Source of the DNA: Candidatus Aenigmatarchaeota archaeon
Lineage (GTDB): Archaea > Aenigmatarchaeota > Aenigmatarchaeia > CG10238-14 > SCSR01
Assembly: GCA_016187415.1 (NCBI GenBank)
Contig: JACPJT010000004.1
Coordinates: 169,392 to 233,391 of the forward strand
Length of the DNA stretch: 64,000 bases
Direction of reading: 5' to 3'
Shown piece after piece: positions 10,085 to 47,102 of the stretch. The position numbers and the translations under genes were made by a program. The notes beneath the pieces are model-generated. The model was not told the DNA's origin and did not search any database. It was given only the letters and a program-made list of their open reading frames with translations. Position 1 is the stretch's first letter. Every line of letters begins with the position of its first letter.

Positions 10085-11128
10085 TTAATTTTCATATAAC
10101 TTGAATAGTTTTTCTTTTTTTCGCAGAAGAGTGAAATTAACAGTATCTCTAAATCTAAGTATATTCTCCTTTCCATAAATGTTAACATAATAAACGTAAT
10201 ACGAATAACGTCGAGGTGATTTGAAATTTTTGTAATACTTTTTGAAACTTGTGTTTATTCTTAATTTGGTTAACAGTTTGGTTACGCCTAATAATCCTTT
10301 TCCATTTACACTGTCACATGTAATGAAGTTTCTTGCGACACATCCTTCACTATCAAAAAAACCTCTCAAAAAAGAAGAAATTATATCTTTATTCCTACTC
10401 GTCATTATTATTTGAGGAACACGCCATTTTCTTACTCCAAATTTCCCAATCGATAGCAAATCATTACAAATAAACTCAGGTGAAATGTAAGCTGCAAATG
10501 TATTTCTTTTGGGACGAAAGTTATAATTAAAACCAAGTCCATATACATCCTTAAAACATTTAATAAAGAATTTTATGAAATCTTCATCTTTTTTATTGAT
10601 TTCCAATTGAACAAAATCTTCATTAATGTGGCCATCCCCACAAAGAACTCCAAGAATGTACGCCTTTTCAGATGTTATTTTTTTAAAAGGTTTTGGTGGG
10701 ATGATTAATCTAAAATTACGTAAGAAAGTCTTAACCCTTTTTGTGTTCATGGATTCTTTTTTATTCCTCAAGACAACATTGTACTTAGTTAGCCATTTCC
10801 GAACAGTATTGCCTACTACATTAAATTTTTTACTTATCTCTGTGGGGCTCATACCTTTTTCCAAATAAAGGTTTAGTAAAATATCCCTTTTAGGTGGTTT
10901 TCTAGGTTTGAACCAAGTTGACTTGTTTCTACCAGGTATTCTATCATTATATAACCAATTCGAAATTGTAATCTCTGGTATCAATATTTTGTGTCTTGAT
11001 TTAATCAATCTTGAAATAAGTCTAGAACCAATCTTCTCTTTATTATATAACTGGACTGCAATTCTATGAAATTGCGATTTCTCTTTATCTGATATTTCTG
11101 CATACCTCAACATATATAGCAATAGCAT
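10085..11128 (-). mobile_element. Free-standing LAGLIDADG homing endonuclease with N-terminal HTH
   Basis: Two LAGLIDADG helices (YILGVLCGDGHI, FLRGFFDSEGCV); AT-rich; not inside another gene. Confidence 0.85.
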
Positions 11129-11193: not shown

Positions 11194-14025
11194 ATGACCA
11201 ATAACATAGCGCAAAATAGTGGAATATTTGAAAGTCTTGACCCTAAAGTAATCGAACTGATAAGAAAATTTGGACTGAAAGAACCGACTCTCATACAAGA
11301 AAAGGCTATTCCAATAATTTCATCTGGATTAAATGCCTTATTAATTTCACAGACTGGAACAGGAAAAACACTTGCAACCTTTTTGCCTATTTTTGATTTG
11401 TGGTTAAAAACAGAACCGAAACCAATAAGTGTTATTTATGTTAGTCCGCTTAAAAGCTTAAACCGAGACATGGTCGAACATTTAATTCGTTGGGGACAGA
11501 AATTAGGAATCGAGGTGGATGTAAGGCATGGTGACACATCCCAACATGAAAGGAAAATGCAAGTTGAATTTCCTCCAGATATAATGATAACCACTCTAGA
11601 ACAACTGCAACCAATGTTGACTGGGAAGAACCTTAGAGAACTGTTGAGAAACATCAAGTATGTTGTAGTCGACGAGGTGCACGAGATAGTGGACTCCAAG
11701 CGCGGTGTGCAACTTTCGCTGGCATTGGAGAGGATAAGAGAACTGTGCGGTGATTTCCAGCTTATAATGCTGTCGGCCACCGTCTCCGATCCAGAATATG
11801 TCGCGGGATTTTTTGCCGGAGGAAAACCAACAAAAGTTGTAAGGGCGGATACCGATAAGGGATTTGAAATAAAAGTGATTAATCCTAAAGCGAGCGCGGA
11901 AGACGATGAAATAGCTCAAAAAATATTTTCATCGGAAGAAACTGCGGCCAGAGTCAGGGTGCTGATGGACCTTATAAAAGAATCGCGATCTACTTTAACT
12001 TTCACCAACACAAGGGACTTTGCAGAAATACTCACATCCAGAATAAAGTCCATAGACCCGAAATTCCCGGTCGAGATACATCATGGCTCATTAAGCAAGG
12101 AAGTCAGGATAAAAGCCGAGAAGGATTTCAAAGAGGAAAAAATCAAGTCTCTGATATGCACCAGCAGCCTGCAGTTGGGCATAGACATAGGCTCTGTTGA
12201 CATGGTTGTCCAATACATGTCGCCGCGGCAAGTGAGCCAATTGATACAAAGGGTGGGGAGGAGCGGGCATGAATTATCAAAGACCAGCAAAGGCGTGATA
12301 ATTACAACCGATGACGACGATATTTTCGAGTCGTCTGTTATTGCGCGGAAAGCTCTTGCCGGGGAAATAGAAAAGTCCACATTCCACGATAACTCGTACG
12401 ATGTCCTGGCGCACCAGTTAATAGGCTTGACATTCGATTTCGGGAGAATCGAAACTGAGAAGGCTTACAGCATAGTGAAACGAGCATACCCCTATAGAAA
12501 TCTGAGTCGTCAGGAATTCATGGACGTGTGCAAACAGCTGGAAAGACTTGGTCTGGTGTTCCTCGATGGGTATATTAAAAAACGTTTGCGCGGTTTCCAG
12601 TATTACTTCGAGAATCTCAGCACAATCCCCAACATAAGACAGTACCGGGTTTTCAACATGCTGGATAGGAGTTATGTCGGTGTTTTGGACGAAGAATTTG
12701 TCGCTGTGCATGGAGAAGCGAATACCACATTCATTGTCAAGGGTCAGCCTTGGAGGATTGTGTCTGTGGAAGATGATAAGGTGCTGGTTGAGCCGGTTGA
12801 AGATATAGAGGCTGCCATACCGGGATGGGAAGGCGAACTGATCCCCGTGTTGGACGATGTTACCGAAGAAGTCGGCAGGCTGAGAAGATTGATAGCCGGG
12901 AAAGTGGAAAAGCTGCCCCAGAACGAAACCGTGAAAGAAATACAAAAATTGTACCCGGTTGATGAAAATTCCGCCAAAAATATGATCAAGACTATCCAAA
13001 ACCAGCTGAAATTTGGCGTGATACCGGATGACAAAACCATCCTTGTCGAAGATTATGATGACTTGGTTGTCATACACTCGTGTTTTGGCAACAATGTCAA
13101 TGAAACTCTGGGAAGATTCCTCACAGCATTATTAACCAGCAGAGTTGGTTCAGTCGGATTGAAAACAGATCCTTACAGGATAATGATCCAGTTCCAGAAA
13201 AAGAATATTGATCTGCTGAAAGAAACTTTGCTGAAAACCAATCCGGAACATCTGCAGAGTTATTTGGAAATGAGCTTGTCTAACAGCGAATTGTTCGCGT
13301 GGAAGTTTGTCCACGTCGCAAAAAGATTCGGCGCCATCACAAGAGACGCGGAGTTCGGCAATGTCAAGATAAAAAAGATCATCGAAGACTATGTTGGGAC
13401 ACCTATATACAAGGAAACGTTGAAGGAACTGGAGACTGAAAAATTTGATATTGAAAAAGCGGTCGACATACTCAAGCGCATACAGAAGAACGAGATCAAG
13501 CTTGTCTTCAGGAACGGGCTGTCCTATATCGGGAAGATTGGCGTGCAGCACAAGTATGCCGAAGTTGTTGGACCCGAAAAACCTGAAATGGAGATATTCG
13601 AGTTGTTTAAGCAACGCCTGCTGAACACACAGGTCAGGATGATATGCGTAAATTGCGGCGACTGGGACAGGGTTTTCACTGTCAAGGACGTTGATGACAA
13701 ACTAAAATGCGGCAAATGCGACTCAAGACTGTTGGCGGCCATGAGGAAGGAATGGGCTGTACCTAGCAAAATCATAAAGAAGGGATTCAGAAAATCCAAG
13801 ATGACGGATTCCGACAAGAAGATGTATGAGAACATGAAGGAGAGGGCTGACCTGTTTATGAATTACAGGTCAAAAGCCGTCAAGACATTGGTGGGAAAGG
13901 GCATCGGTCCTACAACAGCAAAAAGAATTTTGGGAAAATACCATAAAGATGAGGAAAGTTTCTTAAGAGACATTCTTGAGGCGGAGAAGCAATTCGTCAG
14001 GACTAAAAGGTTTTGGTCGCTATAA
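11194..14025 (+). CDS. lhr: Lhr-family ATP-dependent DEAD/DEAH helicase
   Basis: TGTGKT Walker A, DEVH, SAT, HHGSLS, QRVGRSGH; C-terminal CxxC...CxxC zinc motif. Confidence 0.9.
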   Translation: MTNNIAQNSGIFESLDPKVIELIRKFGLKEPTLIQEKAIPIISSGLNALLISQTGTGKTLATFLPIFDLWLKTEPKPISVIYVSPLKSLNRDMVEHLIRWGQKLGIEVDVRHGDTSQHERKMQVEFPPDIMITTLEQLQPMLTGKNLRELLRNIKYVVVDEVHEIVDSKRGVQLSLALERIRELCGDFQLIMLSATVSDPEYVAGFFAGGKPTKVVRADTDKGFEIKVINPKASAEDDEIAQKIFSSEETAARVRVLMDLIKESRSTLTFTNTRDFAEILTSRIKSIDPKFPVEIHHGSLSKEVRIKAEKDFKEEKIKSLICTSSLQLGIDIGSVDMVVQYMSPRQVSQLIQRVGRSGHELSKTSKGVIITTDDDDIFESSVIARKALAGEIEKSTFHDNSYDVLAHQLIGLTFDFGRIETEKAYSIVKRAYPYRNLSRQEFMDVCKQLERLGLVFLDGYIKKRLRGFQYYFENLSTIPNIRQYRVFNMLDRSYVGVLDEEFVAVHGEANTTFIVKGQPWRIVSVEDDKVLVEPVEDIEAAIPGWEGELIPVLDDVTEEVGRLRRLIAGKVEKLPQNETVKEIQKLYPVDENSAKNMIKTIQNQLKFGVIPDDKTILVEDYDDLVVIHSCFGNNVNETLGRFLTALLTSRVGSVGLKTDPYRIMIQFQKKNIDLLKETLLKTNPEHLQSYLEMSLSNSELFAWKFVHVAKRFGAITRDAEFGNVKIKKIIEDYVGTPIYKETLKELETEKFDIEKAVDILKRIQKNEIKLVFRNGLSYIGKIGVQHKYAEVVGPEKPEMEIFELFKQRLLNTQVRMICVNCGDWDRVFTVKDVDDKLKCGKCDSRLLAAMRKEWAVPSKIIKKGFRKSKMTDSDKKMYENMKERADLFMNYRSKAVKTLVGKGIGPTTAKRILGKYHKDEESFLRDILEAEKQFVRTKRFWSL

Positions 14026-14056: not shown

Positions 14057-15121
14057 CTAATAGGTTTCATGTAATTGTCTTATTTCCTTAATAATTTTTT
14101 TTCTCAACTTGTAGGTATTCCCGTGCATGACATAACCGAACCAGCCTTCAAGCATCTTGCTTGCCTTGTCGCCAATTGTCCCCCCCCCATTGACGCATAG
14201 ATTGTTTAGCTTCCTTTCAAATTTATCCAGATTGCTCTTTCTTGGAAGTTTGTAGTGGTAGAACACCCTGAACCCCAGAAGGGTCACGCCATTGTGCAAC
14301 GGGACAATCTTTGACTTGCCCGGATGGAGCTCGAGATTTAGTCTCTGCTTTAAAAAATTAGTTATCAGCCATTTGTATAACAGAAGCCTTTCTTTTGAGT
14401 CGTGCAATATGACGAAATCGTCAACATAACGGATATAGTATTTTGCTTTCAGGTTGTGCTTGACATAATAGTCCAATTCGTTCAGATATATGTTGGCGAA
14501 GAACTGGCTTGTCAGATTGCCTAGAGGCATTCCCTTATTTGATATTTTAAAATCATAATTACCAAGGATTGTTTTTATCAACTGCAGGGTATTCTTGTCT
14601 TCTATTTTCTTTCCTATAATTTTCATCAGGATTCCTATATCGATCGTGTCGAAGTAGTGTCTGATATCGGCTTTTAATGCATATCCGACAACCATATTCT
14701 TATCCTTGGCGTTCCTTGTTAACCGACCGTTGTTTGCAACTTTCCTCTTGAACTCATCGAATCGTTTCAATCCTGCATGAACTCCCTTGTTTTTCCTGTT
14801 GGCATAAGTGTCGTGAATAAAGATTTTTTCGAATATAGGCTCTATTAAGTTACATATTGCGTGATGTATCACCCTGTCTCTGAAAGCTGAAGCATGAATC
14901 ACGCGTGTTTTTGGGTCTCTGACAATGAATCTCTTTAATGTTCTGGGTTTGTATGTTTGTGTTTTCAGTTCTTGTTTTAATTTTGTTAATTCGTCATCCA
15001 AGTTGGATTCAAACTCTTGTACATACCACTTCTTGCTTTTCCCTTTCTTGGCTTTCTTGAACGCTAGTCTGAGATTTTCAAAGGAGCACAATTTGTCGAA
15101 TAGATTGTTATAGGTTTTCAT
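14057..15121 (-). CDS. DGR-type reverse transcriptase
   Basis: FRDRVIHHA, KADIRHYFDTID, GMPLGNLTSQFFANIYL (SQ signature), YIRYVDDF; 354 aa with no endonuclease or maturase extension; adjacent TR/VR pair. Confidence 0.95.
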   Translation of the reverse strand: MKTYNNLFDKLCSFENLRLAFKKAKKGKSKKWYVQEFESNLDDELTKLKQELKTQTYKPRTLKRFIVRDPKTRVIHASAFRDRVIHHAICNLIEPIFEKIFIHDTYANRKNKGVHAGLKRFDEFKRKVANNGRLTRNAKDKNMVVGYALKADIRHYFDTIDIGILMKIIGKKIEDKNTLQLIKTILGNYDFKISNKGMPLGNLTSQFFANIYLNELDYYVKHNLKAKYYIRYVDDFVILHDSKERLLLYKWLITNFLKQRLNLELHPGKSKIVPLHNGVTLLGFRVFYHYKLPRKSNLDKFERKLNNLCVNGGGTIGDKASKMLEGWFGYVMHGNTYKLRKKIIKEIRQLHETY

Positions 15122-15450
15122 AAAAATCCTGGGCCATCTGGGTTATTCAAAACAGAACCCCTGTTGGAGTTCAGGTCTGTTGAAGATTTCCTGTTCTCAG
15201 GCTCCCTGTTCGAATTCAGGTTCGGCCTTTCGCGACTCACATTCTCACGGTCCCTGAAGTTCCAGATGAGAGCTTGAAGTTAGCCTAATCCACCAAACTT
15301 GCACTGCGATTTTAGTATTCGTTCATCACTACTAACTATCACCGCTGTATTTCATGGCTAAACGGAAAAAGCCCTAATGCACTATGGAAAGGCATGTAGC
15401 CCAGACTTTGCTGTCATCTGCAGTCAAGCACAGCCCAGGAATATAGAATT
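15122..15450 (-). ncRNA. Putative DGR RNA (about 170-nt leader + TR + 20-nt spacer before RT); ends approximate
   Basis: No ORF of 60 aa or more; TATA-like TTTAAAT at 15455-15461; leader segments 15433-15440 and 15400-15405 are complementary to spacer segments 15127-15134 and 15137-15142. Confidence 0.65.
15142..15273 (-). repeat. DGR template repeat (TR), 132 nt
   Basis: Aligns to VR 15917-16015 over 99 nt with 15 mismatches, all at TR adenines on the coding strand; rich in AAC/AAT; two extra segments of 15 and 18 nt. Confidence 0.95.
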
Positions 15451-15475
15451 GTGAATTTAAATATTAAAATCTGAT

Positions 15476-16318
15476 TTATATTTCTGTAATAGGTACGCCT
15501 GCTCTTTTAGCCAACTCTTGCAATCTTTCGTATTGCGTGCGTGGCACTCTAACATTGACAAAATCTTCTGCTTCTCGGCTAGGCATCGTCGGCCATGCGA
15601 GAATTCCGCTTGATCTCACCCAACAACTTTTCCATATGCCGTCTCTTAATCCCCTGTAGGCATCTCTCACTTGTTTCTCTTTCAAGCCCTCTCCGCTTTC
15701 GAATCTTTTAACCTCGTCTCCCATCCACTGTTTGCTCGGTTCTTCTGGCTGGACGAATGCGGCTATTCTATTCACATCTTGTTCGTCAGAATTTACCAAA
15801 CCGTTCTTTTGAACGTATAATTGCGTCTCCCACAAATCTTCGCCTCTTAGTGCCACTTCAGGCTGGACGAAATAGCCAATGCCAGGTATTTTTATACGGC
15901 CTTCGCCTTCGGCGACGCTACCCAAAACAGAACCCCTGTCGGAGTACCCGTACTCAGGCTCCCTGCCCGAATCCAGGTCCGGCCTCTCACGGCCCCCGAA
16001 GCCCCAGATGAGAGCCCTTAATCCTTCATATAATTCTGGATTTGAATTTGTCCAGACATAAGTATTATCTGCTTTTAATGGTTTTACTGCATCTCGAGGC
16101 ACCAATAAATTCATCATTTCAGGCGTTATCGTTCCGTTTTGTCTCACCCAATTTACTTGTTTGAATGGATTGTCCATGCCCTCTAAATTAATCCTATAAT
16201 CCCTGTTTGCCCTGTTGACATCATCTACTCTATAACTAGAAATTATGATAGGGCTTCCATTTCTTGGAAGTTCCGCGCCTGTTATTCTTGGTGAGTATGA
16301 TTGAACAGCCGTTGCCAT
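15476..16318 (-). CDS. DGR target (variable) protein, probable CLec-like domain with a C-terminal extension
   Basis: Contains the VR in frame (ALIWGFGGRERPDLDSGREPEYGYSDRGSVLGS); preceding YVW...P...GL pattern resembles DGR CLec targets. Confidence 0.9.
   Translation of the reverse strand: MATAVQSYSPRITGAELPRNGSPIIISSYRVDDVNRANRDYRINLEGMDNPFKQVNWVRQNGTITPEMMNLLVPRDAVKPLKADNTYVWTNSNPELYEGLRALIWGFGGRERPDLDSGREPEYGYSDRGSVLGSVAEGEGRIKIPGIGYFVQPEVALRGEDLWETQLYVQKNGLVNSDEQDVNRIAAFVQPEEPSKQWMGDEVKRFESGEGLKEKQVRDAYRGLRDGIWKSCWVRSSGILAWPTMPSREAEDFVNVRVPRTQYERLQELAKRAGVPITEI
15903..15915 (-). promoter_or_regulatory. DGR retrohoming hairpin with GAA triloop
   Basis: TCGCC-GAA-GGCGA on the coding strand, 1 nt after the VR 3' end; matches the GRA-loop hairpins described for archaeal DGRs. 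Confidence 0.75.
15917..16015 (-). repeat. DGR variable repeat (VR), 99 nt / 33 codons
   Basis: 13 A>G and 2 A>T differences versus TR; no mismatch at non-A positions. Confidence 0.95.
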
Positions 16319-16333
16319 GATTTAATAGAGTAT

Positions 16334-16348
16334 AGTAAAGGATTTAAA
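16334..16348 (-). promoter_or_regulatory. TATA-containing promoter motif TTTAAATCCTTTACT of the DGR target
   Basis: Identical 15-mer at the same distance from the ATG upstream of gene 46338-47102. Confidence 0.75.
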
Positions 16349-16500
16349 CGTTATGCTTAATAGCTTAATAAAAATTTTTTGCTTGTATAAGATATTCGAC
16401 AGTTGCATATTTTTATAAAGAAGTCCAGAGATAAAAGTTATTTTAGGTGCAAAGCCGTAGCTGTAAACAACTATTTATTTGATTAACTCTTTTAACAATT

Positions 16501-46337: not shown

Positions 46338-47102
46338 TTACTTATATTTAATTGGGGCGTCTGCTCCTATACCCAGAACCCCGCCGTCATACCTGCCCAA
46401 CGGCCCGCCCGCAACCGCGCCGAGACCCAGCACGCCAGAGCCCCAGCCGCACCCGACAGTAGATATACCGTTTTCATCGGGATAATTACCAGCCCAGTAG
46501 GAAATTTCCTTAGCATCGGGTCTTTCTTCAAATATATCATCATCGACAGGTATATCCCCTGAAATCGTGGTGAAAAATCCTGTTTTGGTAGGAATCACTA
46601 TATTTTTGGTGCTGTATCCACTAAGCGACCGTCTGTCTCTAGTTATCAATTGACCTGTTCCAGATGCGGATGGGTCTATTGGAAGTGCCAGAGCTTTCAT
46701 AATGGCTGTGTCATTGCTTAATCTTATAAGTTGTCCTGTTCTCGTCCACCAGGGCACCAGCACATTTTGCTTGTATGGCTGACCCTCATTGGAATAAGCC
46801 GCAGCTTTGTTCTCAGCAAATCTGACATGCTTCAGTCGCAAATCATCCGTTGATAATAAATCAAGTATACCGAAATCTTCTTCTGATGTTAATGCATAGA
46901 CTACCATCTCGCGTTTAGTATAGCTTCTACCGTCTGTAGTTCTTATTTCTCTTGAAACTCTTAGCGGATAAGGATGGATTTTAGCAACGGTGCCATTGCC
47001 TAGAGGAACTAGAAGAAACTCCGATTCTTTGGGGCGTATTGCATATTCAACTATCGCTTCTACAACTTGATCAGGTGATATTGTCAACGCCTTGGTTGCC
47101 AT
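46338..47102 (-). CDS. Probable remote DGR target protein with C-terminal VR-like region
   Basis: Tail SYWAGNYPDENGISTVGCGWGSGVLGLGAVAGGPLGRYDGGVLG parallels the target 1 pattern; 46371-46457 has 3 A in 87 nt; same promoter 15-mer and MAT start as target 1. Confidence 0.65.
   Translation of the reverse strand: MATKALTISPDQVVEAIVEYAIRPKESEFLLVPLGNGTVAKIHPYPLRVSREIRTTDGRSYTKREMVVYALTSEEDFGILDLLSTDDLRLKHVRFAENKAAAYSNEGQPYKQNVLVPWWTRTGQLIRLSNDTAIMKALALPIDPSASGTGQLITRDRRSLSGYSTKNIVIPTKTGFFTTISGDIPVDDDIFEERPDAKEISYWAGNYPDENGISTVGCGWGSGVLGLGAVAGGPLGRYDGGVLGIGADAPIKYK

Follow-up and report, generated by a model that had tools for sequence, protein, structure and literature searches.

Results

Organization of a diversity-generating retroelement in an Aenigmatarchaeota genome

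The window analyzed here is a 64,000-nt stretch of DNA from a Candidatus Aenigmatarchaeota archaeon (GenBank assembly GCA_016187415.1, contig JACPJT010000004.1, positions 169,392 to 233,391 of the forward strand). Its minus strand carries a compact cassette of a diversity-generating retroelement (DGR), in which an open reading frame (ORF) for a variable protein, the target, is followed by a 354-nt noncoding stretch and a reverse transcriptase (RT) gene. Comparison with relatives indicates that this target is a natural circular permutant of a C-type lectin (CLec) fold, with its variable segment inside the chain. The cassette consists of the following elements.

15476..16318, minus strand: target (variable protein) gene, 280 aa, putative circularly permuted CLec fold plus tail
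15917..16015, minus strand: variable repeat (VR), residues 102-134 of the target; all mismatches lie at adenines of the template repeat
15275..15439, minus strand: RT-16 RNA motif (Rfam RF03019), found by cmscan directly 5' of the template repeat
15142..15273, minus strand: template repeat (TR), 33 nt longer than the VR, matching nt 16015-15917 of the ORF
14057..15121, minus strand: DGR RT, 354 aa, RVT_1 match with an E value of 7.9e-19

The RT gene, whose start codon lies 21 nt from the end of the TR, gave the only match in a search for RTs in its own genome (735 kb, 10 contigs, 93.9% complete). Its relatives in public genomes bear the names Nanoarchaeota, Woesearchaeota, Pacearchaeota, and Aenigmatarchaeota, which identifies the element as a DPANN-type archaeal DGR, and the homologous RT loci of other DPANN genomes have TR/VR pairs of their own. 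The RT-16 motif was recognized over its full length (model positions 1-158 of 158) with 88.1 bits against a gathering score of 50 (E = 4e-14). None of the DGR-RT models in NCBIfam matched the RT above its cut-off; the best match was to a group II RT (152 bits versus a cut-off of 300). A search of the genome for the Avd family (PF05635) gave no match at the completeness of 93.9% given above, and no ORF of at least 50 aa was found on the cassette strand between target and RT. Not every DGR is known to encode Avd. Taken together, the element is a working archaeal DGR of the DPANN type with the ORF at 15476-16318 (minus strand) as its target.

The internal VR is still being rewritten

When two additional blocks in the TR (see below) were left out, TR and VR aligned without gaps over the 96 nt compared. 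The 14 mismatches fell without exception on TR adenines (12 A>G and 2 A>T). This alignment confirmed the placement of the VR in the earlier note on this DNA (a reading of the sequence without database searches), which had assigned it to about residues 102-134 of 280 with some 146 residues following. In the alignment of homologues, column entropy was highest at residues 101-130.

VR alleles were read from contigs of four groundwater runs from one study (X1-X4), aligned to positions 15100-16400; as these are contigs and not reads, rare variants are hidden. The contigs of X1, X2, and X4 were identical to the window over 15351-16400 save for 12 letters each, all within 15937-16009. Those of X3 differed in another way, with nine differences in one contig, all in the VR, and four in the next; three of these four are listed, each at a VR position. 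The block-free TR has 24 adenines in its first 92 nt, and every one of the 16 listed variant sites coincided with a TR adenine. An otherwise identical gene thus occurs with no fewer than three VR alleles (that of the window, that of X1/X2/X4, and that of X3). Since the contigs differ from the window only in the VR and at TR adenines, the internal VR is still under adenine-specific rewriting in the population. A point to be set against this is that the runs may include the very sample from which the window was assembled.

Two further observations were made in these runs. The summed contig depth over the RT-16 leader was approximately 10 times that of the adjoining gene in all four (about 360 versus 37 in X1); many related elements of that community therefore share this leader. 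Over positions 15117-15275, a second contig type with higher summed depth was present in X1-X4, with 15 differences and three small gaps relative to the TR; it is a related DGR template of another strain or organism in the same samples.

The two halves of the target occur in swapped order

A word-based search identified 12 homologues of 240 to 278 aa that share the layout of the target, and an alignment of close homologues (A2) comprised 13 rows. A profile of the layout-sharing homologues, searched against 1.84 billion representative sequences, yielded 59 relatives. Many of these matched in two pieces and in reverse order, with profile positions 140-247 at residues ~9-110 and positions 8-133 at residues ~112-230. 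The target was accordingly described by two half-domains, each represented by a hidden Markov model (HMM).

15905..16318, minus strand: residues 1-138, second (C-terminal) half of the putative CLec fold, ending in the VR (Ndom HMM)
15584..15904, minus strand: residues 139-245, first (N-terminal) half of the putative CLec fold with β1, helices, and a strand (Cdom HMM)

Both HMMs were scanned over 68 proteins, and a protein was counted as having both halves if at least 70 model positions were matched by each. This was the case for 47 proteins, 19 with the halves in the order of the window and 28 in the opposite order, hereafter the canonical one. In the canonical-order relatives, the Cdom HMM matched residues ~5-110 and the Ndom HMM the C-terminal part, and the VR motif W.F..RE.P.L.S...P......GSLLG formed the end of the protein or was followed by only a short tail. 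The same swap was seen in a pairwise BLASTP comparison of the target with P0023, a canonical-order relative of 228 aa. Residues 4-133 of the target aligned to 108-222 of P0023 (42% identity, E = 1e-25) and residues 138-242 to 8-107 (34% identity, E = 4e-17), so that the two high-scoring segment pairs lay in swapped order. For the half made up of residues 1-138, an hhalign comparison of alignment A2 with the family alignment A3 gave a probability of 99.9. A misassembly as the source of the order found in the window is opposed by contigs of several runs that bridge the ORF and by the occurrence of this order in 19 proteins of several sources.

These results change the view of what follows the VR. 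The earlier note had taken the downstream part, about 146 residues, for an extension. An added output module is not supported: residues 139-245 correspond to the N-terminal half of the same CLec fold, and only 35 residues (246-280) are extra. The note had further pointed to a motif, FVQPE, occurring twice in this region. The motif is indeed present at residues 150 and 188. At the first site, VQP is found in all 13 rows of A2, while the second reads FVQPE in one row of 13 and FT[MRQ][PA]E in most others, so the second copy amounts to no more than chance. An internal repeat, considered as an explanation, was rejected because this second copy is not conserved among the 13 rows.

The protein is acidic (pI 5.3), and its hydropathy profile (maximal 19-aa Kyte-Doolittle mean of 0.36) revealed neither a hydrophobic N-terminus nor a transmembrane-like segment. 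The absence of a signal peptide and of a transmembrane helix, as read earlier from the sequence, is thus borne out as far as hydropathy goes, a dedicated signal-peptide predictor not being part of the check. The proposal of a hypervariable ligand-binding protein is likewise supported, with no sign of export.

Both halves are assigned to one C-type lectin fold

An AlphaFold2 model of P0023, built from a 38-row alignment of canonical-order members, had a high confidence (pLDDT 93.2, pTM 0.91) and was compared with 48,161 representative chains of the PDB by VIA-align. The best match was the DGR variable protein TaqVP (5vf4; Z = 9.7, 177 aligned residues, rmsd 3.5, model residues 1-225, 14% identity), followed by the variable protein AvpA (5ioo; Z = 9.1, 155 aligned residues, rmsd 3.6, model residues 12-223 and AvpA chain residues 2-210). 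Next came the C-terminal domain of Bd2740 (8oks, Z = 7.8) and then mostly C-type lectins with Z values of 6 to 7.6; TvpA and Mtd scored 6.8 and 6.0, respectively. Foldseek also ranked TaqVP first for the P0023 model, weakly (E = 9.8e-3). The matches span both halves of P0023, which argues that the two halves together make up one CLec domain.

In the structure description of AvpA (PMC5006420), the CLec fold is given as residues 8-209, beginning and ending with the paired strands β1 and β5. Since these strands pair, the termini of the fold are adjacent and a permutation is feasible. With both halves belonging to one CLec domain, touching termini, and a swapped order of the halves, the target gene is, on the grounds of sequence comparison, a natural circular permutant of a single CLec fold. 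The secondary-structure elements of the target followed those of P0023 in rotated order when the two models were compared, and the cut was located in the loop that connects the long strand following the helices (residues 98-107 of P0023, 233-241 of the target) with the next strand. The VR keeps its position in the fold, at the end of the VR-bearing half as in the relatives, and not its position in the chain, where it occupies residues 102-134 of 280.

Several results weigh against this assignment. The target's own model, based on the 13-row alignment, was poor (pLDDT 64.9, pTM 0.61). A Foldseek search of the PDB with this model gave nothing at E ≤ 0.001 and a wide VIA search nothing at Z ≥ 5 apart from generic helical matches to residues 133-235; coming from a poor model, these outcomes say nothing either way. 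As the target's own model finds no fold, the CLec fold of the permutant rests on homology to its modeled relative, and it is from that relative that we infer how the window protein folds. Searches by sequence gave no family either: profiles A2 and A3 had no relevant match in the PDB at E ≤ 10, the 38 canonical-order members no relevant Pfam family, target and P0023 no NCBIfam family, and the ESM Atlas no usable match (pLDDT of its own model, 0.31).

The two halves might also be independent domains whose order was shuffled, without permutation of one fold. The half-domain HMMs match separately, proteins with one half only exist (P0018, P0026, P0040), and the target's model is too poor to decide. 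Such a domain swap appears highly improbable to us, because the match of the P0023 model to single CLec domains takes in both halves (in AvpA residues 2-210, the fold being delimited as 8-209 in the description cited above), because in 18 of the 19 permuted proteins the halves abut without a gap and the N-terminal half starts at or near residue 1, and because the one-half proteins have the lengths of fragments at contig ends. Circular permutation of one fold is therefore retained in what follows.

The linker between the halves is encoded in part by a candidate hairpin of the retroelement

In the permuted chain, the old termini are joined as LGS-VAEGEG-RIKI. The DNA encoding this junction contains a further element.

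15903..15915, minus strand: GC hairpin TCGCC-GAA-GGCGA, just 3' of the VR and inside the coding sequence (DNA fold)

The hairpin encodes the residues V-A-E-G of the linker VAEGEG, so a putative cis element of the retroelement lies inside the coding sequence. Its folding energy was no better than that of shuffled sequences (z = -0.47). The VR ends in TGGGTA and the TR in TGAATA. For nanoarchaeal DGRs, the relevant passages of Paul et al. (2015, PMC4372165) describe GRA-loop hairpins inside the target genes and repeat ends of TGGGGT and TGGAAT. The position of the GAA-loop hairpin within the target gene and the VR/TR ends resemble this description, at a hairpin z of -0.47.

A C-terminal VR is presented as a near-universal rule of DGR targets in the corresponding section of Roux et al. 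(2021, PMC8144416), where it is explained by cis elements that need to be intergenic. A survey of 2024 places 87% of VRs at gene ends in the part dealing with VR position (PMC11661182). Here, the putative cis element after the VR is coding sequence.

The C-terminal tail is a candidate dimerization element

One part of the target lies outside both halves.

15479..15583, minus strand: C-terminal tail, residues 246-280, with strand F253-V258, helix R260-G274, and the end PITEI; half-ribbon-helix-helix-like

In the target model, the helix of this tail comprised residues 260-273. The only Pfam matches of the whole target were to ribbon-helix-helix (RHH) families and fell into the tail: RHH_3 (E = 0.0075, 16.7 bits versus a cut-off of 21.6, residues 256-280, model positions 7-31 of 44), RHH_1 (E = 0.012, 15.9 bits versus 20.5, residues 254-280, model positions 2-28 of 39), and NikA-like (E = 0.11). 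All remained below threshold and all stopped where helix B should begin. The RHH unit is thus incomplete, as the protein ends six residues after the turn and most of helix B is absent. A sequence search of the PDB with the tail returned designed helical repeats and unrelated enzymes only, and no RHH chain. The resemblance to an RHH protein with a shortened second helix had been pointed out in the earlier note; the shortened helix is confirmed, and the likeness itself is weak.

A homodimer model of residues 244-280 reached ipSAE values of 0.44, 0.43, and 0.44 in three runs, compared with 0.01 for the best control. The runs shared at least 96% of their contacts at a pLDDT of 78. For calibration, the dimer mark was reached by 20 of 30 proteins solved as pairs and by 1 of 23 solved as single chains. 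The predicted contacts 253-259, 254-258, 255-257, and 256-256 describe a two-fold antiparallel ribbon centered on V256; helix-helix contacts were predicted at 266, 269, and 270, with the last six residues placed on the strand of the partner. Of the structure predictions proposed at the outset, the dimer of the tail thus passed and the monomer model of the target was poor (pLDDT 64.9). Canonical-order relatives often carry other C-terminal extensions, which are helical, unrelated to this tail, and in some cases coiled-coil-like by eye; their presence at the same end points to oligomerization as a shared role. From the model, the tail is probably an oligomerization piece that pairs two copies by an antiparallel ribbon as in RHH dimers, giving a bivalent receptor. 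Between the two roles suggested earlier, DNA binding or dimerization, dimerization is favored by the interface scores, and there was no positive evidence for DNA binding.

Some findings speak against this assignment. The dimer score may stem from RHH dimers already known to the model, and the calibration is only rough because the prediction started from an alignment of our own. In 6 of the 13 A2 rows, the tail was missing or had just a few residues left, and in a paralogue of the same genome (contig C9) it is cut off by a TAG codon and degenerate beyond it. A tail lost or decayed in many homologues is dispensable.

This pattern would also fit a tail without function, a decaying or neutral appendix whose RHH likeness is a chance strand-helix pattern. 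Besides the losses in six rows and the degenerate paralogue, the Pfam scores below threshold and the absence of sequence similarity to any RHH chain of the PDB are in favor of it. It is opposed by the conservation of the tail where it is present. The same form, ending in TEI or TEV at the same place, was found in four of the 13 A2 rows and also in P0018, a fragment not included in A2; although their overall identity is 57-60% (83% for P0018), some 28 residues and the position of the stop are retained in them. The tail of P0007 is divergent, and P0013 and P0011 have part of it; the divergent tails of P0007, P0013, and the variant L066 still consist of a strand plus a helix. Together with a homodimer score well above the controls (0.44 versus 0.01), this makes a functionless tail unlikely in our judgment.

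Less likely still is that the tail is a working minimal RHH DNA-binding module, in which case the protein would be a regulator in the cytoplasm that senses through its hypervariable part and reads DNA with the dimeric ribbon. RHH_3, RHH_1, and NikA-like are the sole Pfam matches of the target, the predicted tail dimer has RHH ribbon geometry, and hydropathy indicates no export signal. In RHH proteins, alternate polar or basic residues of the strand form the base-reading face; in the tail, the strand residues N255 and R257 and the following R260 are polar or basic and are kept in the four close tail-bearing A2 rows. On the other side, all RHH matches stay below their gathering scores and end at model position 28 of 39 or 31 of 44, the tail matches no RHH chain of the PDB by sequence, and neither the tail (pI 6.8) nor the whole acidic protein (pI 5.3) is basic. 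Moreover, many close homologues and the same-genome paralogue have lost the tail or retain it in decayed form, variants elsewhere (L066) keep only the strand and one helix, and the unrelated helical tails at the same end of canonical-order relatives point to oligomerization. Were this improbable reading to hold, the DGR would evolve the sensor of an intracellular regulator, in which the permuted lectin binds a changing cytoplasmic ligand, for instance a molecule of host or virus, while the RHH ribbon dimerizes and tethers the protein to DNA; it would be the first case of a retroelement writing a hypervariable transcription factor or a DNA-bound receptor. A pairing function of the tail remains the preferred assignment.

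A resemblance between DF-HPRII... in the tail and DF-VNVRV... at the start of the VR half had suggested that the tail is a diverged copy of that start, left over from a tandem duplication. This origin was dismissed as unsupported: when the tail was compared by hhalign with all 34-residue windows of A2 and A3, no probability exceeded 3.7%, and the candidate windows stood at 0.1%.

Two blocks of the TR are absent from the VR

The 33 nt by which the TR exceeds the VR are contained in two blocks.

15229..15243, minus strand: TR block 1, 15 nt, absent from the VR; fits a bulge-helix-bulge (BHB) mini-intron CGUG / AGA / 8 nt / CGCG / AAA
15170..15187, minus strand: TR block 2, 18 nt, absent from the VR; fits a BHB mini-intron CAGG / AAA / 11 nt / CCUG / AAC

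Blocks recurred at the same places in related TRs, with lengths of 15 and 15 nt in genome G100 (locus L031), 15 and 21 nt in G089 (L045), 15 nt in L053, 24 and 21 nt in L054, and 18 nt in each of L046 and L051. At non-adenine positions, each VR tracks its own TR. Because each VR follows its own TR yet lacks the blocks, retrohoming works while leaving the blocks out.

BHB cleavage cuts after the second bulge nucleotide, and this rule was applied to the blocks. For all 11 resolvable blocks in eight TRs, exactly one of the boundaries compatible with adenine-only changes formed all four central base pairs; the blocks of L048 could not be resolved, L056 yielded none, and L052 is without a block. 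The common motif consists of a 4-bp central helix, two 3-nt purine-rich bulges, and a small capped helix, and the helix showed compensatory changes (CGUG/CGCG, CGUG/CACG, CACG/CGUG, and GGUG/CAUC). The TR blocks thus fit mini-introns of the BHB (tRNA) type, a reading based on base-pairing patterns. None of the sequencing runs in which the stretch occurs is recorded as an RNA run. The lengths of all 11 blocks are multiples of three (15, 18, 15, 15, 15, 21, 18, 18, 15, 24, and 21 nt), which plain excision before reverse transcription would not require. Possibly, unspliced templates are used at times and lead to length variants that stay in frame; another possibility is reading of the TR frame. 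As a separate observation, the TR frame runs without a stop from a TAA a short way upstream as far as a TGA overlapping the ATG of the RT gene (ATGA).

Among the papers searched, we found no publication linking BHB motifs with DGRs. Where TR/VR length differences are treated in Wu et al. (2018, PMC5758913), they are reported for 7% of DGRs and ascribed to slippage.

Distribution of the two orders, paralogues, and neighboring genes

The family was present in 16 of 371 genomes of the phylum and in 12 of the 69 genomes of the window's own family. The canonical order was found in eight genomes in which both halves were detected, including three of the same genus (G100, G102, and G104). The order of the window occurred, among the loci fetched, in its own genome, with three paralogues on contigs C2, C9, and C6, and in G237. 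In the same-genus genome G100, an RT gene whose product is 74% identical to the window RT adjoins a canonical-order target with the same TR layout.

In a maximum-likelihood tree of the 47 proteins, calculated with the halves in a common order, one change of order suffices, and none of 500 label shuffles gave a value as low. The canonical-order proteins formed two well-supported clades (support values of 98 and 97). A single derivation from a canonical ancestor is the simplest reading of this sequence-based tree. This history has its weak points. The branch uniting the permuted proteins is weak (SH-aLRT 39), the tree is midpoint-rooted only, and a search for tandem or longer forms (491-2000 aa) found none, which is weak evidence; the direction and number of permutation events are not proven. 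A metagenome scan for loci with the permuted order returned only three short contigs, none with an RT.

The paralogues at L002 1501-2340 (contig C9) and L003 1477-2211 (contig C6) are surrounded by ribosomal and translation genes, and neither has an RT in its vicinity. Their VRs were compared with the TR as candidates for targeting in trans. The C9 paralogue keeps the hairpin, and its VR aligns to the TR with the same two gaps and several non-adenine mismatches; the VR of the C6 paralogue has diverged and aligns poorly to the TR. A 254-aa ORF at 46338-47102 (minus strand) of the window is outside the target family and is not among the three own-genome matches to the target protein. Beyond the RT gene follow an Lhr-type helicase at 11194-14025 (plus strand) and a free-standing LAGLIDADG-type homing-endonuclease-like ORF with a helix-turn-helix at 10085-11128 (minus strand).

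Discussion

The gene at 15476-16318 is likely to encode the variable ligand-binding protein of an active DPANN DGR, built as a permuted CLec fold with a tail that probably dimerizes. In the proposed mechanism, the RT would copy the TR RNA (15273 to 15142), which is preceded by the RT-16 motif and contains two blocks that never reach the VR. Copying would misincorporate at adenines, and the complementary DNA would replace the VR encoding residues 102-134. Most relatives have the arrangement [β1-helices half][VR half], and the target has [VR half 1-138][VAEGEG][β1-helices half 139-245]. The VR would be internal because the halves of the CLec fold were swapped by permutation, and the linker VAEGEG would turn the old terminal strand pair into a hairpin. 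The strand-helix tail would then pair two copies through an antiparallel ribbon, resulting in a bivalent receptor. The anatomy of the DGR, its continuing adenine-specific variation, the swapped halves, and the CLec fold of a canonical-order relative are supported by the data directly, whereas a CLec fold of the permutant itself, dimerization through the tail in the cell, the bound ligand, and the compartment are parts of this model that we infer.

In the literature on circular permutation in connection with DGRs or C-type lectins, a search of limited depth found no published permuted DGR target. The protein would provide a natural counterexample, and one that is still being rewritten, to the rule of the C-terminal VR. 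The conserved feature would be the place of the VR in the lectin fold and not in the gene, and the hairpin that follows the VR can at the same time encode part of a structural linker. Permutation offers a testable explanation for at least some of the catalogued cases of "internal VR" and is a warning to annotation pipelines that expect the CLec domain to end at the stop codon. It would also mean that a new chain topology is compatible with the DGR scaffold, a property of use for engineering DGR-based diversification into internal loops.

Comparison with known systems

The closest known counterparts are the canonical-order relatives, such as P0023 and the G100 target (L031 6040-6795). Both of their halves are homologous to those of the target (42% and 34% identity for P0023), and they share its VR motif, an RT of the same clade (74% identity), a TR with two extra blocks, and the RT-16 leader. 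They differ in the reversed order of the halves, in a VR that ends the protein, and in the absence of both the VAEGEG linker and the RHH-like tail.

The tail can be compared with RHH proteins of the CopG/Arc/MetJ type (RHH_1, PF01402; RHH_3, PF12651). It has their strand, helix, and G-x-P turn in common, and its predicted two-fold antiparallel ribbon dimer resembles the RHH dimer. Unlike these proteins, it scores below threshold, lacks helix B almost entirely, and is joined to a 245-residue lectin fold.

Among DGR targets of known structure, nanoarchaeal AvpA (5IOO) is likewise archaeal and consists of approximately one CLec domain of about 200 residues according to its structural description by Handa et al. 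(2016, PMC5006420), and a GRA-loop hairpin within its gene is mentioned in the relevant part of PMC4372165. Its strand order is the normal one, with β1 and β5 at the termini, and it has no detectable sequence relation to either family profile. TaqVP of Thermus aquaticus (5VF4) is the best structural match of P0023 (Z = 9.7), but is a bacterial protein of 381 residues with normal order and a C-terminal VR. The target is a putative member of the AvpA/TaqVP-like subclass of CLec folds, archaeal and cellular, that is cut in the middle of the fold.

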